The notes: a model not told the origin generated them from the letters alone. Shown: positions 1-64,000, counted from the first letter of the stretch. The stretch is 64,000 nt of DNA from Deinococcales bacterium (GCA_031414595.1 JANNVX010000088.1:192001-256000), one strand, 5' to 3'. Numbers and translations are program-made.

Positions 1-2201
1 GTGATGTGCAGGGATTTGTGATTCCTGCCGGTAGCAAAGCCGTGGCGCTTTCACTCTCGAGTGACCCGACTTTTAGGTTGAGCGAAGCCAGTATCAGTGG
101 CGCTTCGTTCAACCTCAACTTGCCAGATTTACCAGATGCCGATGCCTTTGGAGCAGCCTTTGAAGCGCCCACTGGCTGCACTGGCGTAAGTGTACAACCT
201 CTTAATGCCGAGGTGGTCTGGCTGGGTTCGTCGCTCGAGGTTGCAGGGCAGTCGGCGGGTGAGTTGGTGGCAAAAAGTGGTGACAAAATTGCCCGTTGGG
301 TGTACGCCGAAGAGCCAATTACGCTAAGTGGAACGCTGACTTGTCCTGCGGCACTAGAAACTCAAACACAGGCTCGAATTGGTAACAACACGCAATACAA
401 CCTCAAGCTGATTCAAGGCTGGAATCTGGTCTTAAGCAACACCGACGAGACAAGCTTTATCAATGCGCCGATGAGTACGTCCGTCACTTGGGGCGTAAAA
501 ACCTCGAATGACTTTGTGGCTGCCAAAGGTAGCGACACGGGTAGCACCGTCACGCGGTTAAAGGGGACGCTCGGCGAAGCAGGTTACGGCTTAGTCGTGA
601 AGCTCGAAAAACCCGGAACGGGCAACTCCAATGACTTGACTGCTGCGCCATCAGCCGCATCTGGAGCCGATGGCAGCTTTGAAATCAACTTGCCTCCTAC
701 TTTGAACCTAGCCTTGCTAGGCGCAGCTTCTGGTCTAAAAGAGGAAGGCTGCCAAGGCAATTTTACTTTGAGTAATCCAAATGCTTTGTTGGGTCAACTG
801 GCAGTTTCGGTTTATCGGGGTAATACCGCCATTGGTAAGACTTTTCTGGTGTCGTACTCGACCACAATCGGTTGGTGGTACGCCTCGAGCGCTCTGAGCA
901 TCAGTGGTCAAGAAAAATGTGGTAGTGGTGATGAGGCGTTTTTCACAAAGTACAATCTCAATTTGCAGACTGGTTGGAATTTGGTGCAGCGACTCGAGAA
1001 CAGCCTACTGCAAACCACCACTTGGAAAAACCTGAGCGGTATCTCGAGTGGTGAAAAATGGTTTATCCGTATTGAAGACGATGGGGTTGGCGTTGCGCCA
1101 GGTCCGTCTGGTGGGCTGGATGCTGGCAGCAGTGCCACGCGAATGCGCGGTAAACTGGGTGGCTGGACAGATACGCTGGTGGCAAACTTAAAACTTGAGT
1201 CCGACTCAGGAAAAAACTTGGCTTTAGCACCCTTAAGTGCAACGGGCGAGTTTGACTTGACCTTGCCAGCTACCATCGAGAGTACCTCCTTTGAAGCCCT
1301 CGAGTTGACCCAAGGTTGTGGTGCTGGTGTAACTTCCACCCCAATCAATCCAACGGGTATAAAGGCATCGCTCGAGCCAAACCGTGACGGCGCACCCTTG
1401 GGCATAATTGCTGTTGGTGGACGTGGTTTCACAGTCAACTGGGTGTATGCCTCAAGTGCTGTTCAAGTAACTGGACAGGAAAACTGCCCAAGTGGTGATG
1501 GGGCGGGCGAACTGCACGAGTACAACATTAACTTTGCATCAGGCTGGAATCTTTTGATCGAACAGGTCGTCATCAAGAATGGCAACGAAGTTTTCCTACA
1601 CAAAAGTGGTACGTTACCAACTGGTTCACAATGGTACTTTGAAGCCGACAAAGAACCTGGTCTACCAGATACGGGCAGCACCACAAACAGCCTGAGCGGT
1701 TCAGTTGGGGCTGGTTTTGCGAATAACAGTTTGCTCTTGAAGGTGGGCGGTCAAACGATCTTGACCACCCTACTTGGAACTAACGGCGAAGCCACCGCGA
1801 CCTTGCCTGCTACGGTTACTTTGAGCGCCCTCAAGTCGCTCAGCCCTGCTCGAGCCGACTGCACTGGAGCTTTAAGCTTCGCGTCGCCAAGCAAGTACGG
1901 TGTCCTCAGCCTCGAGATTTGGAAACTCTCAACCTTCAAAAGCCCAGTCGAAATTACCAATGAAGACTCGGATGGCTCACTCGAGAAAATTTCTTGGTGG
2001 TACTTGGAAACGGCAACCACAGTCAGTGGCACACAAGCATGTGCGGGTCTGGTCAACAACACATTCAAATACGACCTTAATTTGCAAGCGGGTTGGAATT
2101 TGGTGCTTGAGCATGTCGAAGAAGAACCAACTGGTGACCGTGACACCAAATTCAGCACCGTCAGCACTGTGCCTGAAGGCACACGTTGGGGCAGCAATTA
2201 A
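1..2201 (+). CDS. Large repeat protein, probably surface or secreted (5'-truncated); four ~185-aa Cys-containing repeats
   Basis: Frame is open from the window edge. The motif Y-x-L-N-L-x-x-GWNL occurs four times, and repeats start DTGS/DAGS at about 534, 1119 and 1668. Confidence 0.8.
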   Translation, partial: DVQGFVIPAGSKAVALSLSSDPTFRLSEASISGASFNLNLPDLPDADAFGAAFEAPTGCTGVSVQPLNAEVVWLGSSLEVAGQSAGELVAKSGDKIARWVYAEEPITLSGTLTCPAALETQTQARIGNNTQYNLKLIQGWNLVLSNTDETSFINAPMSTSVTWGVKTSNDFVAAKGSDTGSTVTRLKGTLGEAGYGLVVKLEKPGTGNSNDLTAAPSAASGADGSFEINLPPTLNLALLGAASGLKEEGCQGNFTLSNPNALLGQLAVSVYRGNTAIGKTFLVSYSTTIGWWYASSALSISGQEKCGSGDEAFFTKYNLNLQTGWNLVQRLENSLLQTTTWKNLSGISSGEKWFIRIEDDGVGVAPGPSGGLDAGSSATRMRGKLGGWTDTLVANLKLESDSGKNLALAPLSATGEFDLTLPATIESTSFEALELTQGCGAGVTSTPINPTGIKASLEPNRDGAPLGIIAVGGRGFTVNWVYASSAVQVTGQENCPSGDGAGELHEYNINFASGWNLLIEQVVIKNGNEVFLHKSGTLPTGSQWYFEADKEPGLPDTGSTTNSLSGSVGAGFANNSLLLKVGGQTILTTLLGTNGEATATLPATVTLSALKSLSPARADCTGALSFASPSKYGVLSLEIWKLSTFKSPVEITNEDSDGSLEKISWWYLETATTVSGTQACAGLVNNTFKYDLNLQAGWNLVLEHVEEEPTGDRDTKFSTVSTVPEGTRWGSN

Positions 2202-2223
2202 CCTTGGAGCTTTGGAGGAATTT

Positions 2224-3645
2224 ATGAACATTGATCGCCGCAATTTTCTCAAAGCCACGGGACTAGGCTTTTCTGGAGCGCTCTTAAGTGCCTGTGGCAC
2301 GACCAACACTGCGCCGTTACCCCCAGGCACGGACGGCATCCTACCGAACGGGTACCGGTTCTATGCAATCAAGCACAACACCGATATTCTGCCCGGTGGT
2401 CGCAAAGGTCTAACTTTGCGCCTCGATGCCGCAATAGACGCAAATGGTCGGGTGGTTTACGGTGCGATTGACAACCAAGACCAAATTGGATTGTACGCCT
2501 TACAATTGGATTTCAGTCAAGCCACACCTCGAGTCTCGAGCGAAGAAAGGTTGGTTCAGGTCGGTGATGTACTCGATGGGCGGCGGGTGGTTGAACTAGG
2601 AACACATGACATCAACCGTCAAGGACAACTGGCGCTGGTGGTCAAGGTCGAGACTGAAATGACCTTTAAGACATCAGACGATCAAGGCAATTTTGATGGC
2701 GGCACTGCCCCGATGAAAATGCAAGCCCTGTATCGGGATCAAGGTCAGGGCTTGACCAGAGTATTATTTGAGCATGTCTTCAACACTGAAGGTCACGAAT
2801 TTGCGGGTATGTTTGGAGACCTCAACATTCACGAAGGCGACCTGATTTTTGTCGCCAACTACTATCATAACACTGGACAAATCACCAAAGACGTGCGCCA
2901 AGGTGTGTTCTGGTTGCGCGGTCTGGACGGCAAACAAGCAAGTTTGGTCGTGACCAGTGGCACAACCTTGGCAGCCAGCACCAGCGCACCGACCATCTCA
3001 CAATTTGGTCTCATCAGCCTGCACGACTCCGGACAATTTGTGCTTCAAGCCATGCTCACTCCAGCTTCAGAATTCGCCCAACAATTTGCCCAAGGCGCAG
3101 AGCAAACGGCTGTTTTGCGTGGAAACCTCAATAGCCTTGCGCCTGCTACTCGAAAAACAGGTTCACCCAGCAACTTGCGGGTTGAAGCCAGTTCAATCTC
3201 GAGTGGTTTGCGTACAAATAGCACTCGAGCCTCGGGCTTGACCTACTTTGCGCCGCGCAGTGGACCAAACTCGAGCTTCGCCCATGTCATCAATACGGGT
3301 AGCACTCACGCGCTGGTGGTCAATAACCGCGTGGTGATGCAATCAGGTGATCGTTCGCCGACAGGCAAAACCATCAACGCCATCGCCACCCCGCAAATGG
3401 CAAGTGATGGTTTGACTTACTTTATGGTTGGCACCGACACAGGCATTGAATTGCTCGTCACTAACGGCGCACAATCACGCACCATCCTCAAAACGGGTGA
3501 TCTATTGGTCAACCACCCAAGTCCAGTCAGCGATTTTATTGGTGTTGGTTATTCTGCCATGCACAGCGACGACGAGGGGCGACTGGCGTTTGTGGTGATT
3601 CACAAAGACGACAGCCAATCCTTGGTACTCGGCTTGCCCATTTAA
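2224..3645 (+). CDS. Tat-exported lipoprotein, probable beta-propeller (NxxGxxAF-like repeats)
   Basis: GGAGGA RBS before ATG 2224; DRRNFLK twin-Arg motif and LSAC lipobox; blade-like motifs IDANGRVVY, INRQGQLAL, LHDSGQFVL, SDDEGRLAF. Confidence 0.75.
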   Translation: MNIDRRNFLKATGLGFSGALLSACGTTNTAPLPPGTDGILPNGYRFYAIKHNTDILPGGRKGLTLRLDAAIDANGRVVYGAIDNQDQIGLYALQLDFSQATPRVSSEERLVQVGDVLDGRRVVELGTHDINRQGQLALVVKVETEMTFKTSDDQGNFDGGTAPMKMQALYRDQGQGLTRVLFEHVFNTEGHEFAGMFGDLNIHEGDLIFVANYYHNTGQITKDVRQGVFWLRGLDGKQASLVVTSGTTLAASTSAPTISQFGLISLHDSGQFVLQAMLTPASEFAQQFAQGAEQTAVLRGNLNSLAPATRKTGSPSNLRVEASSISSGLRTNSTRASGLTYFAPRSGPNSSFAHVINTGSTHALVVNNRVVMQSGDRSPTGKTINAIATPQMASDGLTYFMVGTDTGIELLVTNGAQSRTILKTGDLLVNHPSPVSDFIGVGYSAMHSDDEGRLAFVVIHKDDSQSLVLGLPI

Positions 3646-3676
3646 GCAATGGTACTCGGCTTGCCCGTTTAAGCAA
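3623..3676 (+). repeat. 27-bp tandem duplication spanning the stop codon
   Basis: tggtactcggcttgccc(a/g)tttaagcaa occurs twice with one mismatch. Confidence 0.95.
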
Positions 3677-3701
3677 TTTTTGAATCAAAAGGAGTTCATT
3701 C

Positions 3702-4835
3702 ATGCCCGACCTTGCCATCACCACCCTCGAGACTTCGCCGTCTTTGGACATCTGTCAGGGCTTTGCGATCATTCCAGCACTGGGAACATTGCGTGCCAGT
3801 GTGCAAGGCTCGAATGTGCAACGCCAACTGCTGAATATCAACTACACAAGCTGGTTTATTAACGTGATTGTGGATGTGCGCTGGAGCTACTTTTTTGGGA
3901 TTTGCGGACCCGCTTGGGCGATGAACACCGAAGTCGGCGGCAACTTTGATAACCCAGACCAACCGGCTGTACAACTGAACTGGGCAGGCAAATACGGCGA
4001 TGGAACTCAGGACGGTTTCGCTGGCGGCATTCAAGTTGGTCTGGAATTTGCCGTGACTTGGAATTACGATATTTTCCCACCGCGAATCTTCCCAAGGCTT
4101 CAGGGCAATGGTGAATTTCGCATTAACATCCTGAAGACCTTTCTCGATTTTCTGATTTCTCGAGCCACCGCCGGCGGTTCTGGGGCGAAAGGCTCGGATA
4201 AACCGCGCACCTCGAGCCAAGGCACTTTGGATTTTGACATGTTCCAAACGAGGAATGGCGAATGGAAATCCAAGGGTAACATTCAAATGACACCCGGCAT
4301 TGAAGGCACATTGAATGTGATTGACCTGATTCCCTTTACCAAAGCCGCTAATGCGCTGTTGCAACGTTTTGGCGGTACGATCATTGCTGGACCAGTGGTA
4401 CAAGTTGGTTTTCCAATTACGATTGCCCCCAGCGAAATTGTCATTGGCAAGCAGTCCTATAACAACTTGCGCTTCGATGCCAACCGCACCATTGGTGACC
4501 GTAACGCTGGCGGCGACAAAGCCGACAATCCCGACACCAAATTGACCCTCAACATCAAACAGACCAGCCGCGTTGAGGTTCGGGTCGGTATCGAACTGGC
4601 AATTTCACACTCGAGATTCGGTTACTTCGGTCAAAAATGGACATGGAGCATTGTGGATTTTATTTCCGCGCTGGCAGGTGTGCCATTGGGAACCGATACA
4701 GATGCGTTTAACGCGCTCGAGAACACCATCGGTACGGTTAATAAATCTTTTGAAGCCCAGAGCGGCAGTTGTGGTTGTGGTCCCGCCACCACGCAAATTA
4801 GGCGAAAAGTCGTGTTTGGAGGCGCAACCCAATGA
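3702..4835 (+). CDS. Hypothetical beta-rich protein without a signal peptide; C-terminal SCGCG
   Basis: AAGGAG RBS; 377-aa ORF; its stop overlaps the next start (ATGA). Confidence 0.75.
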   Translation: MPDLAITTLETSPSLDICQGFAIIPALGTLRASVQGSNVQRQLLNINYTSWFINVIVDVRWSYFFGICGPAWAMNTEVGGNFDNPDQPAVQLNWAGKYGDGTQDGFAGGIQVGLEFAVTWNYDIFPPRIFPRLQGNGEFRINILKTFLDFLISRATAGGSGAKGSDKPRTSSQGTLDFDMFQTRNGEWKSKGNIQMTPGIEGTLNVIDLIPFTKAANALLQRFGGTIIAGPVVQVGFPITIAPSEIVIGKQSYNNLRFDANRTIGDRNAGGDKADNPDTKLTLNIKQTSRVEVRVGIELAISHSRFGYFGQKWTWSIVDFISALAGVPLGTDTDAFNALENTIGTVNKSFEAQSGSCGCGPATTQIRRKVVFGGATQ

Positions 4836-6013
4836 ATCCCGACCTTCAACGGCAACTCGAAGCATCACTCGAAGCTCAATTTGCCAGCGCTCAAGCCTTA
4901 GGTGCTGAGGTAAACGATAACGAATTGCGACTCGAGACTGCGGCTGATTTATTTGCCGCGATTGAGTCCAATGATTTGCTGACCCGTCTGAGTGTCCTCG
5001 AGGCAATCGCCAATGAACCCGAATCGGCACTGGCATTAGGGTCAGATGGAAAACGTGATTTAATCGCCGTGCTTCGTTCCGAACTCGAACAGGTCTTCAG
5101 TCCAGAGATGCGAATGTACTTGCTTTCAGCCTTGACTGCCATGCCTAGCGATCCACGGGTCACGACTGCACTCGAGCAAATCTGGTTTTTGTCCTCGGAT
5201 ACCAATGAACGGTTGTGTGTCGTCTCGAGGTTGGTGCAAGAAGCAGAACCTGCGGTGCGCCAACACCTCGAACGCAGTTTAATGTGCAGTGATTCAGAGC
5301 GTGTCCAAAGCGTGGCAAACGTCTGGCAATCTTTGAGCCAAGATTCGCCAGCCCTGCACCTGCGCTTGGCGTTGGCTGCCGAGCATTTCAAAGGAACTGT
5401 CCCAAGACTCGAACAAAATACCGAGCTTTGGTTAAGCGAATTGCGAGGGGTATTTGCTGACCGCGCTCGAGAAATGCTCGAAACAAACTCTACCCAAAGC
5501 ATTGAAGTGCTTAGTGGCGCGTGGCAAAAACTCAACCGCGAGACTCGAGCTTGGTTGCTTGACCTTGCACGACGCGTCGAATCCGAGAAACTCTCACGCT
5601 TAACCGACCTTGCCCTGCAAGACCAAAACTTGCAATTAGAAACCATTCATGCCGCCAGCGCACCTTCCATCACAAATCAGTACACCCAACAACTCGAGCA
5701 ACTGGCAAACCATAGCCCTGTCCCTGAAATACAAGCCGCCGCGATTCGGGCGGGTGCGCCAGGTAACAACCGCACTCGAGCTTTGCAAGCCAATGCCAGA
5801 ACGGTGCGAATAGCCGCCATTCGTCAACTCGGAAATACCGACCAGACCACGCTGCTCGAGTTACTACACGATACAGATTGGCGTATTCGCAGTGCTGCCG
5901 CCGACCGCCTGAGTTCATTTGGTGAAACTGGCAAACTTGCCGTTCAAGCGCTCCTAGAACACGAATGGCTCGAGGTTCGCATCGCAGCAGCTCGAGTTAT
6001 GCAAACTTACTAA
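4832..6013 (+). CDS. HEAT-repeat protein
   Basis: Helical repeats such as VRIAAIRQLG, DWRIRSAAADRL and LEVRIAAARVM. Confidence 0.8.
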   Translation: MNPDLQRQLEASLEAQFASAQALGAEVNDNELRLETAADLFAAIESNDLLTRLSVLEAIANEPESALALGSDGKRDLIAVLRSELEQVFSPEMRMYLLSALTAMPSDPRVTTALEQIWFLSSDTNERLCVVSRLVQEAEPAVRQHLERSLMCSDSERVQSVANVWQSLSQDSPALHLRLALAAEHFKGTVPRLEQNTELWLSELRGVFADRAREMLETNSTQSIEVLSGAWQKLNRETRAWLLDLARRVESEKLSRLTDLALQDQNLQLETIHAASAPSITNQYTQQLEQLANHSPVPEIQAAAIRAGAPGNNRTRALQANARTVRIAAIRQLGNTDQTTLLELLHDTDWRIRSAAADRLSSFGETGKLAVQALLEHEWLEVRIAAARVMQTY

Positions 6014-16309: not shown

Positions 16310-16311
16310 AT

Positions 16312-34884: not shown

Positions 34885-34984
34885 ATTTACCCTATGAAAT
34901 TTAGTTGTTTTTCACCTCAAGTTTAGAAGCATGAGGATTGTAGACTTTCGGTGCATCGCAAAATCAGTTTGCTCAAAATTATTA

Positions 34985-35030
34985 TTTGCGGCAGGAGAAC
35001 CCATGTTTTTGCGGCAGGAGAACCCATGTT
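34985..35030 (+). repeat. Perfect 23-bp tandem duplication of RBS + ATG
   Basis: tttgcggcaggagaacccatgtt occurs twice. Confidence 0.95.
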
Positions 35031-36180
35031 AAAAGTTGCAGGAGCGGTACTAGCAGTCAGTTTTGGTATTATTGGCATCTCGGCACTTGCCCAAAGTGGT
35101 ATGACCAAGCTCGGTAAGGGCGAAGGGCGTGTCGACATTGTGGCTTGGCCCGGTTATATCGAACGTGGTGCAACCGATAAAGCCTATGACTGGGTGACAA
35201 GTTTCGAGAAAAAAACTGGTTGCAAAGTCAATGTTAAAGCCGCAGGGACTTCGGACGAAATGGTGACCCTGATGAACCAAGGAGTCTATGACCTTGTAAC
35301 AGCCTCCGGTGATGCCAGCTTAAGAATGGTGGCAGGCAAAACCGTGCAACCCGTCAACATTAAATTAATTCCGAGTTATGGCAAAGTAGACCAACGCCTT
35401 CGCAACGCCCCGTGGCATGTGGTGGACGGCAAAAATTACGGCACACCTTACCAATGGGGACCGAACGTCTTGATGTACGACACCACAGTATTTGCTGTTC
35501 CCCCAGCCTCCTGGAGAGTCACTTTTGAAGAAATGACCCTGCCCGATGGCAAAAGCAACAAAGGACGGGTTCAGGCTTATGACGGACCAATTTACATTGC
35601 CGATGCTGCCTTGTACCTAATGAAAAACGATGCCAGCCTTGGTATCAAAGACCCGTATGAGCTAAACGAAGCCCAATACGCTAAAGTTCTCGAGTTGTTG
35701 CGTGGTCAGCGTCCGTTAATTCAACGCTACTGGCACGATGTCAATGTCCAAATCCAAGACTTCACTAAAGAAGGCGTGGTTGCCAGTGGTGCTTGGCCAT
35801 TCCAAGTCAACACCATGAAAGCCAATAAACAGAATATCGCCAGTACCATTCCACAAGAAGGCGCTACTGGCTGGGCAGACACCACCATGCTTGGCGCAAA
35901 ATCCAAGCACCCGAACTGTGCCTATATGTGGATGGAACACAGCCTTAACCCAGTCGTACAGGGCGATGTTTCGGCATGGTTTGGTAGTGTCCCAGCCGTC
36001 CCAGCCGCTTGTACTGCCAGCAAATTACTCGGTAAAGATGGTTGCAAAACCAACGGGTTTAACGACTTTAACAAAATTAAATTCTGGAAAACCCCAACCA
36101 CGACCTGCAAGAGCCAAGGTACATGTGTGCCGTACAACCGTTGGGTCTCGGATTATGTGGCAATCATGGGCGGAAAATAA
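35026..36180 (+). CDS. Polyamine ABC transporter substrate-binding protein (YdcS-like)
   Basis: AWPGYIERG..YDWVT, TSDEMV, TASGDAS, QWGPNVLMY and EGATGWADT. Confidence 0.9.
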   Translation: MLKVAGAVLAVSFGIIGISALAQSGMTKLGKGEGRVDIVAWPGYIERGATDKAYDWVTSFEKKTGCKVNVKAAGTSDEMVTLMNQGVYDLVTASGDASLRMVAGKTVQPVNIKLIPSYGKVDQRLRNAPWHVVDGKNYGTPYQWGPNVLMYDTTVFAVPPASWRVTFEEMTLPDGKSNKGRVQAYDGPIYIADAALYLMKNDASLGIKDPYELNEAQYAKVLELLRGQRPLIQRYWHDVNVQIQDFTKEGVVASGAWPFQVNTMKANKQNIASTIPQEGATGWADTTMLGAKSKHPNCAYMWMEHSLNPVVQGDVSAWFGSVPAVPAACTASKLLGKDGCKTNGFNDFNKIKFWKTPTTTCKSQGTCVPYNRWVSDYVAIMGGK

Positions 36181-36182
36181 AA

Positions 36183-36232
36183 GAGCTATGAGCTATGAGC
36201 TATGAGGTTTTTTAGCTCATAGCTCATAGCTC
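36183..36232. repeat. Inverted heptamer tandem-repeat hairpin, (GAGCTAT)n / (ATAGCTC)n
   Basis: Three or more units on the left arm and about three reverse-complement units on the right. Confidence 0.9.
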
Positions 36233-36246
36233 GAGAAAGCCAAATT

Positions 36247-37257
36247 ATGACCCAGCATTTAACATCCAATGCCGTACTTCTCGAGTCGGTCAGTTGTACT
36301 TTTGGCACCCCTACTAAAACAGTCAAAGCCGTAGATAACGTCAGTCTCGAGATTAAGGAAGGCGAATTCTTTAGTTTGCTCGGTCCAAGCGGCAGTGGCA
36401 AAACCACCTGTTTACGTTTGATTGGTGGCTTTGAACGACCCTCAAGCGGCAGCATTCGCTTGTTCGGCACGGATGCCAGTCGCTTACCGCCTTTTTTGCG
36501 TGAACTGAACACGGTTTTTCAAGATTATGCTTTGTTTCCGCATATGACGGTAGCTGAGAATGTAGCCTATGCCTTAATGGTGCGTGGCGTAAACAAAACC
36601 GAACGCACAAAACGGGCTTTAGAGATGCTTGAATCGGTCAAACTAGGCGGTTTTGGCTCGAGACGACCCGCCCAACTGAGTGGTGGTCAACGTCAGCGTG
36701 TGGCATTGGCGCGGGCTTTGGTCAACCGTCCTCGAATTTTACTCTTGGATGAGCCGCTTGGGGCATTGGATTTGAAATTGCGTGAAGAAATGCAGATTGA
36801 ACTTAAGGCACTGCAACGTGAACTGGGAATCACTTTTATTTATGTGACCCACGACCAAGGCGAAGCCCTGAGCATGTCTGACCGCGTGGCGGTTTTTAAT
36901 CATGGCAAAATCGAGCAATTAGATGCGCCCAAAGTTTTGTACGACGCGCCCAAGACCGAATTTGTGGCGCGGTTTGTTGGCAGCGCCAATATCTTAGATG
37001 GAGCTTTGATTGGGCAAGCTGGTTTGTTTGCGCTTCGCCCCGAGAACATCCAAGTAATGCCATTACAATCTGCTTCTAAACTGCAAGGTGAACTGATAGA
37101 TATTCATTTTCTGGGCGCACAAACTCGGCTCGAGGTACAAGTCGGCAGTACCCGAATTGCGGCGCTGCAAAGTGGTGAAACACCATTGCAACGCGGACAG
37201 CAAGTCAGTTTGATATGGCAAGATTCCCATTTGCGGCAACTCGAGGTCAGGGCATGA
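36247..37257 (+). CDS. Polyamine ABC transporter ATPase (YdcT/PotA-like)
   Basis: [27 protein letters not shown] and a TOBE tail. Confidence 0.93.
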
Positions 37258-38171
37258 CTGGCGTAATACAGCGTTTCTCGAGCCTACTGCATGGTCGTCC
37301 GTGGTTGGCATTGTTGCTGCTCTTAATTCCGCCGCTTTTATGGATGGGGATTATTTATATCGGTTCGTTACTCAACTTACTGATTTATAGCTTTTATTCG
37401 CTCGATGATTTTACGGGTCAAGTCAAATACGAACCAACCCTGTCTACGCTGCAACAACTCTTCACCTCGAGCAGTAACGTGGATATTGTGCAGCGAACCG
37501 TTTTTATGAGCATCGCGGTAACGGTTGCTTGCGCTGTAATTGCCTTTCCAATTGCTTATTTTATGGCGTTTCACACCAAAGGAAATTCCAAAGCCTTCTG
37601 GATTTTACTGGTGCTGTTGCCGCTCTGGAGCAGTTACTTGGTGCGCGTCTATGCTTGGAAATTGCTGCTTGCCAAAGAAGGCATCATCAGTTGGTTTTTT
37701 GACACCCTAGGCATCCGTTTTGTCTTGGACTGGATTTTAACCCTGCCTGTGATTGGCGGCTTTAGCCTAAGCTCGAGCTACTTAGGGATGTTTCTGGTCT
37801 TTGTCTATGTTTGGTTGCCTTACATGATTTTACCGATTCAAGCCAGTTTAGAACGAGTTCCCAAATCCTTACTGCAAGCCTCATCTGACCTTGGCGCAAA
37901 ACCCAATCAAACTTTTTGGAAAATTTTACTCCCCCTGACTGTTCCCGGAATCGCGGCTGGTAGTATCTTTACGTTTTCCCTGACCCTAGGCGATTACATC
38001 ATTCCCGGCGTGGTTGGCGCACCTGGTTTTTTTATTGGGCAAATGGTCTACACCCAACAAGGCACAGCCGGAAACATCCCCTTAGCCGCCGCTTTTAGTC
38101 TTGTACCCATCGTGATTATCGGCTTGTATTTGGCATTTGCCAAAAAACTGGGGGCTTTTGATGCGCTGTAA
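37254..38171 (+). CDS. Polyamine ABC transporter permease (YdcU/PotB-like)
   Basis: [13 protein letters not shown] and an EAA-like QASSDLGA loop; ATGA overlap with the ATPase. Confidence 0.9.
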
Positions 38172-38173
38172 TC

Positions 38174-38233
38174 GCTATGAGCTATGGGTTATGAGCTACG
38201 AGTCTTCAAAGCCCATAGCCCATAGCTCAAAGC
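38174..38233. repeat. Degenerate inverted heptamer-repeat hairpin
   Basis: gctatga gctatgg gttatga gctacga ... tcaaagc ccatagc ccatagc tcaaagc. Confidence 0.85.
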
Positions 38234-38246
38234 CAAGGGTTTCTCC

Positions 38247-39053
38247 ATGACTCAGGCTTCTTGGGGTTTACGAATTGCGGCTGGGTTATGCGTTTTATTT
38301 TTGCATTTTCCACTTTTTATTATTGTCTTGTATGCCTTTACCACCGATGATAAAACCTATGCGTTCCCACCACCGGGTTTGACCCTACACTGGTTTGGTG
38401 TGGCGGCGGCTCGATCCGATATTTGGGCAGCCCTTTGGCTTTCGGTGCGTACCGCACTTTTGGCAACCCTGCTGGCAGTGGTGCTTGGCACGATGGTTGC
38501 AGCCGCGATGTATCGGGCTAATTTTTGGGGTAAGGAAGGGATTACTTTACTGTTTATACTGCCAATAGCCCTGCCGGGGATTGTCACGGGAATTGCGCTG
38601 CTCTCGAGTATTCGTAGGGCAAACATCGAACCGGGTTTACTAACGATGGTGATTGGACATGCGACCTTTTGTATTGTCACGGTTTTTAATAATGTAGTGG
38701 CACGTTTTAGGCGAATTTCGCACAGTCAACTCGAGGCAAGCAGCGACCTTGGGGCAACGGGTTGGCAAACCTTTCGTTTTATTATTTTGCCAAACATTGC
38801 TACAGCACTGCTGGCGGGTGGTTTGTTGTCCTTTGCCTTGTCGTTTGATGAGGTGATTGTCACGACCTTCACTTCAGGCACAGAACAGACCTTGCCGATT
38901 TGGTTTTTGAATGAGTTATTTCGTCCTCGGGATCGCCCGATTACCAATGTTGTGGCAATTTTTGTGATTGCCGTGACGATGATTCCAATTTTATTGGTGC
39001 AGCGTTTGACCCAAGCGGGTGAAGATTTACATGGCGGTGGCAAAACAAGTTGA
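38247..39053 (+). CDS. Polyamine ABC transporter permease (YdcV/PotC-like)
   Basis: [18 protein letters not shown] and [11 protein letters not shown]. Confidence 0.9.
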
Positions 39054-39223
39054 ATGATCTAATGTATATTCATGCAACTTAATGTATAATTATACAGATT
39101 AGTCAAATTGGCTAAGAAAATTATCAAAGCAAGTTCATGCAGTTGCAATACTCGGGGAAGCGGCACAGCACACAATCCTCCTTCCTCCTTTATCTTTCCT
39201 CCCTAAACCCTTTAGAGGTACTT

Positions 39224-40534
39224 ATGACAGCAATCCTAGAAAAACCAGTCTCTAACAACACCGCTCTGCTCGAGTTACGCGCCGCCCATGTCCCGCGTGG
39301 TGTGTCCGCCCTGACCCCAATTTTTGCGGCTCGAGCTTCAGGCGCGAGTCTTTGGGATGTGGATGGTAAGCACTTTATAGACTTTGCGGGTGGCATTGGA
39401 GTCTTAAACACTGGGCATACCCACCCTAAAGTTGTGGCAGCCATACATAAGCAACTCGAGGCGTTTACCCATACTTGTTTTCAGGTGGTGGCTTACGAGA
39501 GTTACATCCGTTTAGCCGAAAAACTGAATTCTCTTGTACCAGTCGCCAACGGTCACAGCAACAAATCATTTTTTGTCTCTACTGGTGCTGAAGCCACCGA
39601 AAATGCAATTAAAATTGCTCGGGCATTCACCAACCGCCCTGGTATCATCAGTTTTGATAACAGTTTCCACGGACGCACTTTAATGGGCATGAGTTTAACG
39701 GGCAAGCAAAAACCGTACAAACAAAATTTCGGACCCTTTGCCCCGGAAGTCTATAAAGCCCCGTTTCCCATTCCTTACCACGGCATCAGCACCAAGGATG
39801 CCCTCAATGGTCTCGAGTTGGTATTCAACACCCAAGTAGACCCTTCGCAGGTTGCGGCAATCATTATCGAACCCGTCCAAGGCGAAGGTGGTTTTAACCC
39901 AGCCCCAGCCGCCTATCTGCGCTCTTTACGCAACATTTGCAGTAAGCACGGAATTTTATTTATCAACGATGAAATCCAATCTGGCTTTGGGCGCACTGCT
40001 AAAATGTTTGCTATTGAACACAGTGGGGTCATCCCAGACATCACCTGTACCGCTAAAAGCATCGGCGGCGGGCTACCCTTAGCCGCAATCACTGGACGCA
40101 CCGACATCATGGACGCACCACACCCCGGTGGACTGGGTGGCACATACGCGGGTAATCCTCTGGCATGTGCGGCGGCGCTGGCGGTACTCGAGATTTTTGA
40201 AGAAGAAAAAGTCCTCGAGCAAGCCCAAGCACTGGCTGCGCGTCTCGAGACTGAGCTAAAAGCTTTAGAGCAACAGTACACAGGGGTTGGTGATGTGCGC
40301 GGACTAGGCGCAATGATGGCAATTGAACTGGTTAAAGACACGGAGAGTAAAAAACCAGATGCAGACAGTGCCACAAAAATCTGTGCGGCGGCGCTCGAGC
40401 AAGGCTTAATTTTAATTAAATGTGGAATGCACGGCAATGCGATTCGGATTCTTGTGCCACTCAACGCCAGCCACCAAGAACTCGAGCAGGGATTTAGCAT
40501 CCTACGCAGTGCATTTGCCAAAGTTTACGGCTAA
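39224..40534 (+). CDS. gabT: 4-aminobutyrate--2-oxoglutarate transaminase
   Basis: IDFAGGIGVLNTGH, FTHTCFQV, EPVQGEGG, DEIQSGFGRT and PLP-Lys TAKS. Confidence 0.9.
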   Translation: MTAILEKPVSNNTALLELRAAHVPRGVSALTPIFAARASGASLWDVDGKHFIDFAGGIGVLNTGHTHPKVVAAIHKQLEAFTHTCFQVVAYESYIRLAEKLNSLVPVANGHSNKSFFVSTGAEATENAIKIARAFTNRPGIISFDNSFHGRTLMGMSLTGKQKPYKQNFGPFAPEVYKAPFPIPYHGISTKDALNGLELVFNTQVDPSQVAAIIIEPVQGEGGFNPAPAAYLRSLRNICSKHGILFINDEIQSGFGRTAKMFAIEHSGVIPDITCTAKSIGGGLPLAAITGRTDIMDAPHPGGLGGTYAGNPLACAAALAVLEIFEEEKVLEQAQALAARLETELKALEQQYTGVGDVRGLGAMMAIELVKDTESKKPDADSATKICAAALEQGLILIKCGMHGNAIRILVPLNASHQELEQGFSILRSAFAKVYG

Positions 40535-40545
40535 GGAGTTCCATT

Positions 40546-42039
40546 ATGGCAAAGAAAAAATCGGTGGTTCTCGAGCATTACCCAATGATTGTTGGTGGTC
40601 TCGAGGTTCGGCACGGACAAGAAAATTTAATTGCCCCCGCTACTGGCGAAGTGTTTGCAACCGTGGCAGTCGGTACACTCGAGGACGTAAATCAAGCGGT
40701 GGCGGCGGCGGTATTAGCCCAAAAAATTTGGGGGGCGTTATCGCCCGGTGAGCGTGGTTTAGCGCTGTGGCGCTGGGCAGATTTACTCGAGGCGAACGCC
40801 GAGCGCTTAGCCAGTTTAGAAAGTCTTAATGCGGGTAAACCAATTAAATTAGCCAAATACGGTGATATTCCGGTAGCTATTGATAACCTTCGCTATTTTG
40901 CCAGTGTCGTGCGGCGGGTCGAGGGGGCGGCTTCGGGTTCGTATGTTGGCGGCATGACCAGTTTGATTCGCCGTGAACCGGTTGGTGTGGTGGCGGCAAT
41001 CACTCCTTGGAATTATCCGATGCTGATGGCGGCTTGGAAACTTGGTCCGGCGCTGGCGGCTGGCAACGCGATTATCATTAAACCTGCCCCGAATACGCCC
41101 ATCACCACCATCGAAATGGCGCGTTTGGCGATTCAGGCTGGCTTGCCGGCTGGGTTAATCAATGTCGTGACTGGCGGCGCAGAAGTTGGCGAAGCGATGA
41201 TTCGCCACCCCAATGTCCGTATGATTAGTTTTACGGGTAGCACCCGCACTGGCAGGCGGGTCGGAGAACTGGCTGGTAACGGCGCAAAGCGCGTGACGCT
41301 CGAGCTTGGTGGTAAAGCTCCGTTCCTGGTCTTTGCTGATGCCGACCTTGAAGCCGCCGTCCAAGGCGCGGTAGCTGGGGCGTTTGTCAATGCTGGGCAA
41401 GACTGCACTGCCGCCACTCGAGTTTATGTTGAAAAAAGTGTTTACGGTAAATTTCTAAAGCGCTTTAAGGAAGTCAGCCGCACCATCCGTATCAGTGCCA
41501 ATCTGACCGACGAAAGCACCGACATGGGTCCGCTTTCCAGTGCTGCCCAACTCGAGAAGGTTCATGCTTATGTACTCAGTGCCAAAAAACAAAAAATCAA
41601 AGTCGAACTTGGTGGCGAACTCCCAACAGGAAAAGGTTTTTTCTACCCCCCAACCATTCTGAGTAACGCCCCGCAACACTCGGATGTGGTGCAAGAAGAA
41701 ATTTTTGGTCCTGTGGTGGTGGTTAATTCATTCTCGACCGAAAACGAAGCCATCGAACTTGCCAATGACATTGCTTACGGCTTAGCTGCCAGTATTTGGA
41801 CAAAAGATGTACAACGTGCCATGCGGGTTTCAAATGCCCTCGAATTCGGCACGGTCTGGGTCAATGACCATTTACCGTTGGTCTCTGAAATGCCGCACGG
41901 AGGCTTCAAAGGCAGTGGAGTCGGTAAGGACTTAAGCCATTATGCTTTAGAAGAATACAGCATTCCCAAGCATGTGATGTTTGACACGACAGGCGACCAA
42001 CGCAAAGGCTGGCATTTTACGATTTTTGGCGACCAGTAA
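40546..42039 (+). CDS. Gamma-aminobutyraldehyde dehydrogenase (PatD/YdcW-like)
   Basis: PWNYP, FTGS, LELGGK, NAGQDCTAATR and EMPHGGFK. Confidence 0.88.
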   Translation: MAKKKSVVLEHYPMIVGGLEVRHGQENLIAPATGEVFATVAVGTLEDVNQAVAAAVLAQKIWGALSPGERGLALWRWADLLEANAERLASLESLNAGKPIKLAKYGDIPVAIDNLRYFASVVRRVEGAASGSYVGGMTSLIRREPVGVVAAITPWNYPMLMAAWKLGPALAAGNAIIIKPAPNTPITTIEMARLAIQAGLPAGLINVVTGGAEVGEAMIRHPNVRMISFTGSTRTGRRVGELAGNGAKRVTLELGGKAPFLVFADADLEAAVQGAVAGAFVNAGQDCTAATRVYVEKSVYGKFLKRFKEVSRTIRISANLTDESTDMGPLSSAAQLEKVHAYVLSAKKQKIKVELGGELPTGKGFFYPPTILSNAPQHSDVVQEEIFGPVVVVNSFSTENEAIELANDIAYGLAASIWTKDVQRAMRVSNALEFGTVWVNDHLPLVSEMPHGGFKGSGVGKDLSHYALEEYSIPKHVMFDTTGDQRKGWHFTIFGDQ

Positions 42040-42752: not shown

Positions 42753-42872
42753 GACGCAAAAAATCAAAACACTGTAAAGAGTAAGAGGGTGCGTCTCAAG
42801 ATTGGGGGTTGCTAATAAATTAGCTCTCAGACAACCTCCTAAAAGCAAATCGAATCATCATCTGCTCTTACG

Positions 42873-42997
42873 ACCCTCTCCCAACTCGCTTCTTGACCCC
42901 TACAGCAGCACCTTCGGGCTTGGGTCGCTTAGGCTCGTTACCCTCTCCCGCACGCGGGAGAGGGTCGTTGCGAGTTCACGAGCAACGGGGAGAGGGT
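42873..42997. repeat. REP/MITE-like nested palindromic element
   Basis: Outer inverted repeat ACCCTCTCCC / GGGAGAGGGT; inner hairpin CCCTCTCCCG-cacg-CGGGAGAGGG at 42941-42964. Confidence 0.75.
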
Positions 42998-43106
42998 GCT
43001 TGGAAGTCGTGGGTTTTCATTCTGTACCCCCAATTCTGAGATGCACCCGAGCAAGAGAGTAAGAAGCAAGTATTGGATACAGCCATGCAAATCGGTACAA
43101 TACCTT

Positions 43107-53100: not shown

Positions 53101-53415
53101 TGGTACAAAGGCAGTTTTTTACAAGGCATAGATGTTGCCGATGCCGAAATCATCCGCGCTCAGTTATGGCAGAACTTCAGAGATACTGTTATCAAAACCA
53201 GTTGTGAAACCCCCAATGCCAATCTGCTCGAGAAATTACACTACCTCGAGCCTTTGGACATTGGGATTTTAGAGCGCTACCTTGAAGTGATTGCCGATGA
53301 TGCGTTTCGGGTTTCGCAGACCGTAACTCGAGCCAAACAAACATTTGAACGTGAAATCGGTGAAATTCCAGTTGAACTCGGAAAATTAACGGCTGTTGCC
53401 GCGTCCTCGGCTTGA
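50173..53415 (+). CDS. STAND-type NTPase + TPR regulator with a C-terminal winged-helix/BTAD-like domain
   Basis: Walker A GAAGLGKS; Walker B WLLEDAHE; EGHPLY; TPRs; C-terminal LRTFGGF..KVRDLLAVL..LIDAIW..IKRLRDAL. Confidence 0.85.
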   Translation: MTLRGIAADLQVALAVAQANNAQVVLLEGAAGLGKSHAMRDLASAVKSGMVLSCSSDGWLAAALRASFAALQSERDPAFLEAARRLVPELPWARVAQAVVLPDQLTLWNALALAFERLAKRVGGLVWLLEDAHEVSAADLAGIRALYRRALLGAAPMLFVISARPTEIDFLDGFIQDSVLLEEAVLPRRLVLAPLDQTGLEALLQSALHSAAVPETLGTWLMARAEGHPLYTLELLRFLQDGGALQDLGLTWFFDPPKGKGLPKNLEAVLLARVAIAKREIKLWLVLSAICVLNRQASLSEIIQITTLTAIDVLEIATRLEYLGLLREELKSGQTVYAVAHPLFLSLVRAQLESAKLQELHQKIMGVVLSVIEKAHHARAAQHPQASQWSALALEQASAVYDYQQVVTEAQFLLTLTHKKDPKVFLAYLAALRELGQAETILEVTKDDDSAEVALYRVYALDYVGQREAAFESANQGFLQYPEPIRSRIGFHLARMHTNKGQFSQAAEILNSLEPADETDKTLLLIEWQRLYYYQSDLKKQLEILEQAEISARKCPTPRHLMIILSKKGIALTQSANHLQAEALMQEALHLTKEFGSVERLAEMYNDLGVAYLMQGNYPKASQMFRAGLRYAQATKNRMQIAAAYYMASSPEFAMLRLDSGRDFIQKSIELFQEANYPVQAGNARFFQAYLESVQGNTEFVHTFFNSELAKAPEKLYSWHSQAGEMHLNLGEFSQALEFYSQVQTSTYPPDGLAEHHHRLAIVYLGVGQLQIALKQSQLAQEQGASMNNPCLKAEMRLGIAIIYWFLEQSELAQKIGKEALAVLQTNQALGHAVVYERLFPNAVQSFQAPKMNTENTPVHSYLRTFGGFGLESQGQSSPWRASKVRDLLAVLLVAYLSQDGPSISKAQLIDAIWQGESPESSEGKFRVSIKRLRDALGDAATIHNQYGVYELQNLKADVVYFLTALENLDFDAALGWYKGSFLQGIDVADAEIIRAQLWQNFRDTVIKTSCETPNANLLEKLHYLEPLDIGILERYLEVIADDAFRVSQTVTRAKQTFEREIGEIPVELGKLTAVAASSA

Positions 53416-59791: not shown

Positions 59792-59829
59792 TGAGAAACC
59801 ACTCATCTAGGGTTTTATAAGCTCAGACC

Positions 59830-60306: not shown

Positions 60307-60314
60307 GGAGTTTT

Positions 60315-61854: not shown

Positions 61855-61905
61855 GGACTACATCCTGCGCTATACAGAACAAAATCAACTGGTCTTAGCT
61901 CACAA

Positions 61906-64000
61906 TTACGCTGTTGGAAAGATAAACTCGAGGCTCGAGCCAAGGTTTTCTTCGCTGCTGACCTTCATTTCACCACCTGCCAGCGCGACTCGTTCACGCA
62001 TTCCAGCTAAACCAAGATGCCCCTCGAGCAGCAAATTGCCGTTTTGCGTGGCAAAGCCTCGTCCGTCATCTTGTACCAATACTTCTAGGCTGGTCTCGAG
62101 AAATTTAAGGCGTACCGAACAATGGGCAGCCTGAGCATGTTTATCTATATTGGTTAATGCCTCTTGTACCACACGGTAAATGGTCAGTTCTAGGGCGGTT
62201 TCTAAGCGGCGCTCAATGCCTTGCACTTCGAGTCTGGCATCGGTACTGGATTGTTCACACAGCCATTCAAGGGCGGGAATAAGCCCAAGGTCATCCAAGG
62301 CACTCGGACGAAGATTACGACTGAAACGGCGCACACTGGCAATGGCGGCATCTACGTCGGAACGAATATCGCGTACTCGGTCTTTGGCTTGGGCGGTTGG
62401 CATGGTCTCGAGGGCAGTTTCTAAACGGTCAAGCCGGCGGGTGATTGCCACTAAAGTCTGGGCGGTGTCGTCGTGTAGTTCTCGTGCAATACGGCGGCGT
62501 TCTTCTTCGCCAGCTTGGGTGAACAGACTTAAGAACGAGCGCAATTCTGAAGCTCTGGCTTGGGCTTGTCCGCGCTGCGTAATCTCAAGGGCTAGTTTTT
62601 GCTGCTCGGATAAATCACGGGCAATCACCAAGCCGCCTTGTAATTCGCCGTTGCGGTGTAGCGCCGATAACTTTATTTCAAGCATCGCCAAAGTACCATC
62701 AGCCCGTTTTACCTCGGCGGTGAAGGTACTCGAAATCTGTTCCTGCATGGTGCGCCAAGCGGCTCGAGCCTCGTCATAACTGTTCGGCTCGAGTAAATCT
62801 TCAAAGTGACGCTCCAAGAGTTCGTTTGGCGCATAACCTAAAACCTCGAGCGCCGCATTATTGGCGTAAGTCACAATGCCTTCGAGGTCGGTTGAAATAA
62901 TCAGGTCTGTGGCGGCTTCTGCCAGCAAACTGTACTGTTGTTGTTGGGCTTGAATCCGTTCATACAGGCGGGCATTTTGAATCGCTAGGGCGGCTTGTTG
63001 GGCAATCGCGGCGGCTAGACGGGATTCCCGAGCGGTAATTTCGGAAGTTCGGGTGCTGTCGGCATATAAAATCCCCAGCACCTGCCCTTGGACTTGAATC
63101 GGTGCAACCACAAAGGCTTGAGCGCCAAGCAGGGTCGGACCCTCGCTTTCGAGCGATTCATCTTGGGCTTCGTTAATCACAATCGGCTCGAGGTCTAAAA
63201 TCAGTTTAGCAAAGGCTTCATCGGCAATCACAAAGGGTTTAATAAAGCCTTCTAAACCATCTTGAAAACCTTGGGCATATAATTTGCCAATTTCGGCACG
63301 TTGGTTTTGCATATCCAGCAAATCAAAAAATCCAATAAAACTGCGTTCTAAATCCAGCGTCTCGAGGGCTTCACGGCAGACTAAAGCCAGCACTTCATCC
63401 AATTCTAAGGTGCTGCTGGTGACTCGAGCCATCTCGAGCAGGGCGTTTTCATCGGCAAAAGCCCGTGCATTGCCCAGCGCCACCCCAGCTTGAGCCGCAA
63501 ACGCCGATAATGTGCCTTGTTCATCAGGGCTAAAGACTCGGCTTTGAGGAAAATACAATGCCAGCGCCCCGTAAACTTCACCACGAGCCATGAGTGGTGC
63601 AGCCAGAAAATCCGACGCAGCAATCACTTCGGCTTGGTGCGTGGACTCGAGCAATAAATCTAAGCCTTGCCCGAGTAAAGAATCATCTTCGACTCCATAA
63701 CTGGCACGTACCTCGAGTACATTTCGCACTTTTTCAAAGACTGCACAGGAACTTGCGCCCAGTAACTTGACGGCGGTCTCGAGAATCGCTTCTAAAGTCT
63801 GGGAAATACTCAGGCTTTCGGATAAGCGCTGCATGACTAGCCGCAACCCTTCGGCATTTTGGCGTTTGGCACTCTCGAGTGAATAGGAGCGCGAATTTTC
63901 CACCGCCAACGCCATAATTTCAAGCATCGCTTGCCCAAGCGAAACGGTGCGCTCAGTAATCTCTAAGCCGCTTTTGGTGGTGTCGGCATACAGCACCCCA
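61906..64000 (-). CDS. GAF-GAF-PAS sensor histidine kinase (HisKA_3), 5'-truncated
   Basis: ERRRIARELHDDTAQ, QEALTNIDKHA, DDGRGF and GLAGMRER. Confidence 0.93.
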   Translation of the reverse strand, partial: GVLYADTTKSGLEITERTVSLGQAMLEIMALAVENSRSYSLESAKRQNAEGLRLVMQRLSESLSISQTLEAILETAVKLLGASSCAVFEKVRNVLEVRASYGVEDDSLLGQGLDLLLESTHQAEVIAASDFLAAPLMARGEVYGALALYFPQSRVFSPDEQGTLSAFAAQAGVALGNARAFADENALLEMARVTSSTLELDEVLALVCREALETLDLERSFIGFFDLLDMQNQRAEIGKLYAQGFQDGLEGFIKPFVIADEAFAKLILDLEPIVINEAQDESLESEGPTLLGAQAFVVAPIQVQGQVLGILYADSTRTSEITARESRLAAAIAQQAALAIQNARLYERIQAQQQQYSLLAEAATDLIISTDLEGIVTYANNAALEVLGYAPNELLERHFEDLLEPNSYDEARAAWRTMQEQISSTFTAEVKRADGTLAMLEIKLSALHRNGELQGGLVIARDLSEQQKLALEITQRGQAQARASELRSFLSLFTQAGEEERRRIARELHDDTAQTLVAITRRLDRLETALETMPTAQAKDRVRDIRSDVDAAIASVRRFSRNLRPSALDDLGLIPALEWLCEQSSTDARLEVQGIERRLETALELTIYRVVQEALTNIDKHAQAAHCSVRLKFLETSLEVLVQDDGRGFATQNGNLLLEGHLGLAGMRERVALAGGEMKVSSEENLGSSLEFIFPTA

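Follow-up and report, generated by a model that had tools for sequence, protein, structure and literature searches.

CTCGAG, a dense HIP1-like palindrome in a family of Deinococcales: occurrence, turnover and possible origin

[quoted passage not shown] The word analysed here is the palindrome CTCGAG, which had been proposed, from the bare sequence of a 64,000-bp stretch of a Deinococcales bacterium (positions 192001-256000 of contig C88 in genome G000; this whole stretch is called the window below), to be a HIP1-like word maintained throughout the genome. According to the reports on HIP1 (Elhai 2015, PMC4390886; Xu et al. 2018, PMC5861425), the word GCGATCGC is over-represented 15-300x, and CTCGAG shares the main traits described there: both are short palindromes in clade-wide excess, present in genes and in spacers, conserved beyond background, with a core that is a methyltransferase target in at least some members of the clade and a function under debate. 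Indeed, CTCGAG displays several features of the highly iterated palindrome (HIP) class, namely a many-fold genome-wide excess, occurrence in all frames and in non-coding DNA, and conservation beyond background. Nevertheless, it differs from GCGATCGC, and CGATCG has only 3 copies in G000. HIP1 is a cyanobacterial word of eight letters found about once per kb, whereas CTCGAG has six letters and occurs once per 190 bp, about five times more densely; HIP1 is described as quasi-periodic (Xu et al. 2018, as reported in PMC13756078), whereas CTCGAG is not; and no conserved orphan methyltransferase was found in the uncultured family of G000, the extreme one among the Deinococcales.

Other described systems share single traits with CTCGAG. 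The uptake signal sequences (USS) of Pasteurellaceae and the DNA uptake sequences (DUS) of Neisseriaceae are also clade-specific words, spread genome-wide and scarce in foreign islands, and the competence gene ComEC provides a further, weak likeness. However, they are longer (9-12 nt), asymmetric, present about once per kb and backed by an experimentally shown uptake bias, whereas CTCGAG is an exact 6-mer palindrome with unbiased flanks. USS and DUS are tolerated in genes at some cost to the protein, which is explained by a drive due to preferential uptake. In the very-short-patch repair of CCWGG in E. coli, a repair bias at a methylated palindrome likewise shifts word frequencies, but the effect is small and needs 5-methylcytosine (m5C) together with Vsr, whereas here no Vsr was found and the modification recorded in relatives is N6-methyladenine (m6A). 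Chi, which marks self DNA for a recombination nuclease, resembles CTCGAG as an over-represented short word, but it is asymmetric, oriented with replication and only few-fold enriched; as to the corresponding helicase-nuclease, PF12705 gave one match in G000, a 256-amino-acid open reading frame (ORF), and no RecB- or AddA-sized nuclease with that family (other families were not searched). The target of an XhoI-type restriction-modification system would be expected to be avoided, whereas CTCGAG is enriched. GATC is not known to be enriched many-fold in Dam-bearing bacteria. Dam and a CTCGAG-specific enzyme of Nocardia (PMC4752239) are orphan m6A methyltransferases, comparable to the Meiothermus and Marinithermus enzymes recorded there, which lack a named nuclease and modify 94-99.5% of the CTCGAG sites; the Nocardia case differs in being a local cluster at the replication origin and not a genome-wide excess. 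In HIP1-poor cyanobacteria another palindrome can take the HIP role, and in the account of Elhai (2015; PMC4390886) such alternate HIPs go together with a word-specific methyltransferase; CTCGAG is not among the words in the text of that article (0 occurrences). The rule fits Meiothermus ruber and Marinithermus, but not the family of G000. No report of a CTCGAG excess in Deinococcota was found in the full-text literature (subscription journals were not covered).

CTCGAG in the window and in genome G000

The window (1..64000) contains 336 CTCGAG sites, or 5.25 per kb, in genes of both strands and in spacers, whereas 100 dinucleotide-preserving shuffles of the same DNA yielded a mean of 8.15 and a largest count of 16, none of them reaching 336. 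The word is thus highly iterated across the window, as claimed in the original prediction, whose hand counts (31 in 1-6000 and 16 in 61921-64000) were exact and whose extrapolation to about 300 sites was of the right order, although slightly below the true number. The complete assembly of G000 (4,488,778 bp in 120 contigs, 47.2% guanine plus cytosine (GC), completeness 94%) carries 23,235 sites, one per 193 bp. This is 23.9x the zero-order expectation of 972, within the enrichment of roughly 20-30x that had been estimated. CTCGAG is the top hexamer of G000; the best non-overlapping word reaches 4.1x, and all hexamers above this value are overlapping sub-words. Only full sites are enriched, since CTCGAA, CTCGAC and CTCGAT have 1,080-2,674 copies against 46,470 for CTCGAG when both strands are counted. 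The maximal-order Markov ratio is only 1.16, a value that is uninformative because CTCGA and TCGAG are scarce outside the word, about 90% of CTCGA pentamers continuing with G. The flanks of the sites (-10 to +10) are near background composition, and CTCGAG is therefore a bare 6-mer and no repeat element. The doublet CTCGAGNCTCGAG, seen in the site list at 2528..2540 and again at 14411-14423, occurs 101 times in G000 against 17-49 times for neighbouring gap lengths, with contexts that are all different and an unbiased middle base; near-background flanks and doublets in differing contexts are not what a dispersed repeat of the repetitive extragenic palindromic (REP) or miniature inverted-repeat transposable element (MITE) type would show.

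The 3,832 long ORFs called in G000 cover 88% of the genome. Synonymous codons were permuted within each gene, a shuffle that keeps the protein and the codon use of the gene (a codon use which is itself inflated by CTCGAG). The ORFs contain 20,325 sites, about 10x the mean of 1,996 obtained in 20 such shuffles, whose maximum was 2,106. The excess survives this codon-preserving control, and codon or dipeptide bias alone is insufficient to account for it, as had been argued from the sequence. All three frames are enriched, with 12,067 sites in frame CTC GAG, 3,977 in frame xCT CGA Gxx and 4,281 in frame xxC TCG AGx. Non-coding DNA holds 2,934 sites in 546,127 bp, that is, 5.37 per kb compared with 5.14 per kb in ORFs and 29x the expectation from composition. 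The claim that the word runs through all frames and between genes was therefore correct.

The protein sequences are affected as well. CTCGAG writes 12,067 of the 20,114 Leu-Glu pairs of G000 (60%), whereas about 1.7% would be predicted from the codon use away from the word, where CTC accounts for 8.3% of Leu and GAG for 21% of Glu codons. Around half of the synonymous opportunities are occupied by the word: 60% for Leu-Glu, 47% for [SPTA]-Arg-[VADEG] and 32% for Ser-[SR]. The odds of occupancy are raised about 30-90 fold (60% of Leu-Glu against 1.7-5% expected; 29x in non-coding DNA), and by our own arithmetic these odds translate roughly into a scaled bias S of 3-4.5 per site, similar in synonymous and intergenic DNA. 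Of all 400 dipeptides, Leu-Glu shows the largest excess in G000, with an observed/expected ratio (O/E) of 2.23. GC-rich outgroup relatives were compared in 80 ortholog pairs (mean identity 58%): of 287 Leu-Glu pairs written with the word, 93 are also Leu-Glu in the relative, and 47 of these 93 are also written CTCGAG there; the remainder face Leu-Asp, Ile-Glu, Leu-Ala, Val-Glu and similar pairs. Pressure for CTCGAG thus pulls proteins towards Leu-Glu.

Sites are placed almost at random. Gaps between them are near-geometric in G000 (mean 191; median 138 against 133 expected; coefficient of variation 0.99), with a deficit below about 50 bp, and the sole periodicity is the 3-bp codon period, so that the check for periodic spacing suggested by the original prediction came out negative. 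Between -300 and +300 relative to start and stop codons the density stays near 5 per kb, dipping slightly just after starts and rising slightly around stops. Per 5 kb the mean count is 25.9 and the variance 40.4, and only 8 overlapping 5-kb windows hold 8 sites or fewer. Neither local regulatory roles nor a requirement for even coverage would fit the random spacing and the flat profiles, while the palindromic form of the word points to a dimeric reader of double-stranded DNA. Long stretches free of CTCGAG are mostly low-GC islands (32-40% GC); the longest, of 4.9 kb (C46:36668-41608) and 3.3 kb (C30:4280-7534), have 32-33% GC and are probably recently acquired DNA. Transfer RNA (tRNA) genes are also poor in the word, with 7 sites in 5,310 bp where the density of the genome would predict 27.5. 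Only 7 of the 68 predicted tRNAs of G000 contain CTCGAG; a cluster at C56:144-2945 (Ser, Ser, Cys, Thr, Glu), in which each tRNA carries the word, may be a mobile-element tRNA array or an over-prediction by the tool.

Conservation, turnover and distribution of the sites

Site turnover was followed in codon alignments of six window genes from G000 and ten other genomes of its family. These genes form a transport and catabolism block on the plus strand (34951..42039), identified by Pfam matches and orthologs, that encodes a binding protein, an ATP-binding cassette (ABC) ATPase, two permeases, a class-III aminotransferase and an aldehyde dehydrogenase. The alignments contain 100 CTCGAG site columns, many of them private to one lineage, and some lineage-specific sites replace residues, Lys-Glu, Gln-Glu or Lys-Arg becoming Leu-Glu. 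Four sites of G000 are kept in 11 of 11 aligned genomes: one in the first permease, in frame xxC TCG AGx (37772..37777, alignment column 575), and three encoding Leu-Glu, in the second permease (38730..38735, column 483) and in the aminotransferase (39455..39460, column 333, and 40187..40192, column 1068). Overall, G000 sites in this gene set are conserved at 35-100% against 9-68% for control hexamers, 2-6 times better. Indeed, 21 of 21 sites are conserved in G001 (control hexamers 64% identical) and 21 of 22 in G005 (68%); in G006, 22 of 28 remain (79%), compared with 24% of control hexamers and 40% of four-fold sites, and in other genera 35-70% remain, compared with 9-18% of control hexamers. 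Where Leu-Glu is conserved in two species, both write it with CTCGAG about as often as the product of their occupancies would give, so that descent and independent re-creation at equilibrium look alike.

A longer alignment with G005 (75.6 kb, 93.0% identity) has 366 sites common to both genomes, 41 that only G005 carries and 37 that only G000 carries; CTCGAG is kept in 91% of cases, against 71% identity for control hexamers. Of the site differences, 78 in all, 53 involve a single base and 46 of these 53 are transitions, which indicates that sites come and go through ordinary point substitution. Gains approximately balance losses, and losses lie several-fold (about 8-fold) below neutral expectation. 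Conversion of multi-base patches was considered as the origin of sites and rejected, as differences of one, two and at least three bases make up 68%, 22% and 10% of the total, compared with 74%, 20% and 6% for control hexamers; balanced single-base turnover likewise argues against templated patch insertion. The comparison with orthologs that had been suggested thus revealed a conservation 2-6x that of control hexamers and gains in every lineage, some of which change amino acids. Together with the excess over codon shuffles, the conservation of sites and their continuing gain bear out the proposal of a genome-wide force that creates or maintains CTCGAG.

The trait is not restricted to one assembly. 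All 18 other genomes of the family, from 5 genera, carry 4.3-6.8 CTCGAG per kb, while the reversed control GAGCTC has 0-568 copies; relatives of one window protein include 15 Deinococcales matches at 73-98% identity. As these 18 genomes include one in a single contig, and as sites occupy orthologous positions across genera, an assembly artefact is excluded.

Across the order, 111 genomes with a completeness of at least 90% were surveyed. The family of G000 (7 genomes including G000) has 4.3-6.5 sites per kb. Intermediate densities were found in groups g24 (1 genome, 3.1 per kb), g22 (2 genomes, 2.9-3.4) and g13 (8 genomes, 1.4-3.0) and in families f4 (12 genomes, 0.7-2.9) and f2 (31 genomes, 0.3-2.6). 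In the Thermus-type group g9 (18 genomes) the density is 0.6-1.1 per kb, about equal to the control, and in the Deinococcus-type group g7 (30 genomes) the word is depleted, at 0.013-0.27 per kb. In samples of 80-200 kb from four relatives (G019, G025, G021 and G030), CTCGAG ranks first to third among hexamers with a zero-order O/E of 5.0-9.1x, and under a dinucleotide model it comes first in G025 (6.4x) and G030 (10.9x). The same samples show 1.6-3.2x the codon-shuffle count overall and 2-6x in the two off-frames, with non-coding DNA raised too. Similarly, in the Meiothermus-type genome G042 the word reaches 3.2x the codon shuffle, all three frames sharing in the excess; non-coding DNA has 55 sites where 7.2 are expected, the Leu-Glu O/E is 1.53 and CTCGAG writes 52% of Leu-Glu pairs. 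In G081, of the Thermus-type group, no CTCGAG excess was found (0.69x the codon shuffle; Leu-Glu O/E 1.00). The excess is therefore graded: genomes of the Meiothermus and Marinithermus types show it at 3-9x, Thermus-type genomes lack it, and in Deinococcus-type genomes it turns into a deficit. The family of G000 is the extreme of an order-wide gradient and no isolated case. The system had been attributed to "this lineage": it does extend through the whole family (19 of 19 genomes), but it is not confined to it. Viral contigs with three CTCGAG inside 78 bp were, among the matches listed, mostly GC-rich (the 30 densest at 53-72% GC), and none of these matches had the composition of the family.

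Methylation of CTCGAG and explanations for its excess

The cultured relatives provide a link to methylation. The S3 and S4 Tables of Blow et al. (2016; PMC4752239) record CTCGAG as an m6A motif, with no cognate nuclease named, in three cultured Deinococcales: Marinithermus hydrothermalis DSM 14884 (M.Mhy14884I, Marky_0034; 94.6% of sites, the only motif found in the strain), Meiothermus ruber DSM 1279 (M.Mru1279II, Mrub_2385; 99.5%) and Meiothermus chliarophilus DSM 9957 (M.Mch9957IV, annotated as HsdM-like; 94.1%). The main text of that article brings up CTCGAG only for the Nocardia origin cluster, and no discussion of the enrichment was found there. These records lend support to the tie between a HIP1-like word and methylation that had been suspected for the window. 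In the Marinithermus-type genome G025, the sole Eco57I-family gene lies at 34.6 kb (L176:814-2154, minus strand; 447 amino acids, Eco57I plus TaqI_C), whereas the Meiothermus-type genome G042 has a 597-amino-acid Eco57I plus TaqI_C gene at 2.437 Mb, 83% identical to L175 of G030. The G025 and G042 enzymes are not orthologs, sharing about 29% identity in the catalytic part only, and TaqI_C proteins of 400-430 amino acids in 18 of 18 Thermus-type (g9) genomes match the Marinithermus enzyme along its entire length at 53-54% identity. The differing enzymes imply that at least three methyltransferase lineages in the order act on CTCGAG or its TCGA core.

The patterns described above amount to a persistent, sequence-specific and coding-blind fixation bias for the exact palindrome, which is inherited family-wide and is weaker across much of the order. 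As for its cause, we favour, with a probability of roughly 0.4, a HIP1-like word kept by a per-site fixation bias that is probably tied to methylation and to preferential retention or transfer of self DNA. CTCGAG would be recognised by a sequence-specific DNA-reading system, probably a dimeric one, that came down from the stock shared by Meiothermus, Marinithermus and the family of G000. The word, possibly methylated, would mark DNA as self, and copies bearing it would be favoured for being kept or handed on when DNA is repaired, recombined or taken up by natural transformation. The result would be a fixation bias of the HIP1 kind, with no regulatory or structural signal at particular places. 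By descent, methylation of CTCGAG is plausible in the family of G000.

Several observations weigh against this reading, most of them concerning the enzymes. The window has no methyltransferase domain among the 32 large ORFs scanned, in agreement with the original prediction that it lacks a cognate enzyme. G000 itself has more than 20 DNA methyltransferase genes, and yet no methyltransferase lineage is common to the whole family. C5 methyltransferases were found in all but two (G010 and G002) of the 19 genomes, the N4/N6 family in 16 of 19 (not found in one-contig G013, G014 and G002) and TaqI_C in only two of the seven best genomes (G000 and G009). When the hits of five Pfam methyltransferase families in six good genomes were clustered, no group was present in all six and the widest covered four. 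For the M.Mru1279II type, the extreme family has distant relatives only (24-28% identity). A word-specific methyltransferase of the kind that accompanies alternate HIPs and is shared by the family was thus not found, and methylation of CTCGAG there, if it exists, would be carried out by different enzymes in different members. Even across the order, the M.Mru1279II lineage, present in 9 of 111 genomes (at least 46% identity), does not track the density of the word: G117, G062 and G105 are rich in CTCGAG without it, G094 and G097 carry it at only 0.9 sites per kb, and the copy of G069 (3.1 per kb) has an internal stop. In the same vein, the tables of Blow et al. (PMC4752239) have no CTCGAG methylation entry for Meiothermus silvanus DSM 9946. 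No Vsr homolog was found, so that the check for co-occurring methyltransferase or repair genes suggested by the original prediction yielded neither a shared methyltransferase nor a Vsr-type repair nuclease; nor was there a match to the XhoI nuclease family (PF04555), in a search whose positive control gave a match in no genome. The spacing lacks the quasi-periodicity of HIP1. Moreover, selection, biased gene conversion and uptake drive all predict the measured patterns alike.

Individual candidates were also considered. L015 and L017 of G000 are stand-alone methyltransferases with an Eco57I-type domain and TaqI_C, and are candidate CTCGAG enzymes by architecture. L015 (C89:271-1965) is an adenine methyltransferase of 564 amino acids whose nearest solved relatives are CamA and M.BseCI; it lies alone on a 2.1-kb contig, its G001 ortholog is on a 1.8-kb contig and its G016 homolog is within a 1,403-amino-acid frame. 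By its sequence, L015 is a candidate CTCGAG or TCGA-core enzyme of sporadic occurrence in the family, but as a family-wide agent it was rejected, its type being present in only 3 of 18 genomes, which is a further point against a shared methylation system. Two other groups were discarded: the HsdM-like group around L027 of G000, the one found in four of the six genomes, is Type I with an adjacent HsdS and also occurs in CTCGAG-poor g7 genomes, and the D12-class methyltransferases are not orthologous across members.

Among the alternatives, an uptake or recombination signal spreading by molecular drive without methylation appears doubtful, though it accounts for much of the data. A receptor at the surface or in the periplasm preferring double-stranded DNA with CTCGAG would cause alleles with the word to be imported and recombined more frequently and would let it spread without benefit, as proposed for USS and DUS. 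The sites do behave in a per-site additive, position-blind manner: they are spaced in a Poisson-like way, have a flat profile along genes and are as dense in genes as in spacers. Islands of low GC, probably acquired recently, have few copies, and amino-acid change is tolerated. No universal methyltransferase was found, and the current HIP1 literature, as represented by PMC13756078, leans to a role in transformation. An intact ComEC in 18 of the 19 family genomes keeps a route through transformation open; the evidence is weak, since the gene is nearly universal in bacteria and was also matched in 10 of 14 control genomes. On the other hand, known uptake words are non-palindromic, 9-12 nt long and present about once per kb, so that a 6-mer every 190 bp would be without precedent, and no receptor candidate was found. 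The uniform, position-independent density can also be read as a genome-wide physical role, in which an abundant nucleoid or repair protein would bind CTCGAG (for compaction, pairing of genome copies or reassembly of breaks) and each site would bring a tiny benefit. Strong site persistence, a palindrome suited to a dimeric binder and the clade-wide nature of the trait agree with such a role; nevertheless, we consider it unlikely, as spacing is random rather than even, which argues against a need for coverage, about 23,000 sites each under effective selection would demand very large populations, and no candidate protein was found.

The mode of turnover bears on a site-specific mutation or repair bias, in which an order-specific enzyme would correct near-cognate mismatches to CTCGAG, as Vsr does for CCWGG, or shield the word. 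The roughly 8-fold suppression of losses relative to neutral expectation, the preponderance of single transitions among the differences and the blindness of the trait to coding would suit it. However, transition neighbours are undepleted (O/E of 1.23 for TTCGAG, 1.07 for CTTGAG and 1.11 for CCCGAG) whereas transversion neighbours are depleted, no Vsr homolog is seen, C5 methyltransferases were not found in some members, and mere protection would neither raise gains nor inflate Leu-Glu; this account is quite unlikely. Very unlikely as the sole cause is a passive relic, by which GC-rich ancestors would have had many CTC-GAG pairs and a protective methyltransferase would have spared TCGA within CTCGAG during the drift to 47% GC. 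GC-rich relatives do carry 1.5-3 sites per kb, outgroup orthologs also have CTCGAG at 47 of the 287 Leu-Glu pairs that the word encodes, TCGA is reduced where it lies outside CTCGAG (10,239 against 17,426 expected) and the other NTCGAN palindromes are nearly absent. But no GC-rich relative reaches the density of the family, 68% of the Leu-Glu pairs written with the word correspond to other residues in outgroups, and new gains in every lineage, the 29x excess in non-coding DNA and the 10x excess over the codon shuffle contradict a relic as sole cause; it may be a starting point only. Finally, the CTC GAG frame holds 59% of coding sites, which might evoke codon or dipeptide bias, but the probability that such a bias, a dispersed repeat family or an assembly artefact underlies the word is close to negligible given the 10x excess over the synonymous shuffle, the presence in all frames and spacers, the unbiased flanks and the orthologous positions in 19 independently assembled genomes; the stretch is also found in Logan contigs of four sequencing runs.

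A wider form of the favoured explanation, that HIPs are general and convergent and that a methylated self word drives its own spread among polyploid, naturally competent Deinococcales, since DNA with the word would be kept or exchanged by preference, and rewrites the proteome in passing, Leu-Glu being doubled, is put forward tentatively and with some doubt. If true, the order would offer a natural dose series, from Thermus (none) through Meiothermus and Marinithermus (3-9x, orphan m6A methyltransferases) to the family of G000 (24x), which could settle the 30-year-old HIP1 question. New here are the order-wide grading, the tie to m6A recorded in relatives, the lack of a family-wide methyltransferase lineage and the random spacing. 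CTCGAG represents a second, independent and much denser HIP-type case, in another phylum and with a measurable force, and a DNA word causes the top dipeptide excess of a proteome. The weaker excess in culturable Meiothermus- and Marinithermus-type relatives with recorded methylation makes the cause open to bench testing. In practice, CTCGAG offers a strong compositional signal by which these genomes can be binned and foreign DNA in them recognised, and XhoI-type enzymes would shred their DNA.

Avoided words and other features of the window

Many other palindromes are avoided in G000. GGCC has 152 copies (O/E 0.01) and GATC an O/E of 0.14, and more than 12 six-letter palindromes have at most 6 copies, among them TGCGCA (2), CGATCG (3), GGCGCC (3), GACGTC (3), GTGCAC (6) and GAGCTC (6). 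This avoidance fits the very large and variable restriction-modification gene set of G000.

Within the CTCGAG sites, one flanking context is avoided: CCTCGAGG accounts for 178 of the 23,235 sites of G000, while the other three palindromic flank pairs have 1,324-1,540 each, and across the family it makes up 0.2-3.9% of CTCGAG sites. Thermus-type genomes show the reverse, with 83-90% of CTCGAG in this context (1,768 of 1,966 in G022; 1,818 of 2,203 in G026). In ten 20-kb samples of contig C1 of the Thermus-type genome G081, 214 of 252 TCGA tetramers lie inside CCTCGAGG; TCGA stands at 0.24x the codon shuffle there, and CCTCGAGG at 1.64x the codon shuffle and 26x the zero-order expectation. TCGA is thus purged nearly everywhere in G081 save in CCTCGAGG, mostly as xxC CTC GAG Gxx.

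Neither an Rfam family nor a 16S ribosomal RNA gene was found in the window or in G000. An intergenic stretch of about 260 bp in the window (42787-43048) recurs in G000 on contigs C17, C56 and C32 at 96%, 82% and 73% identity, and several genomes of the family contain parts of it; probably this is a mobile or repeated element of small size. At 12360-14158, a WD40 beta-propeller gene comes after a PD-(D/E)XK_2 (Rpn-like) nuclease/transposase gene, and two large AAA_16-TPR regulators are encoded at 22485-25358 and 50173-53415.

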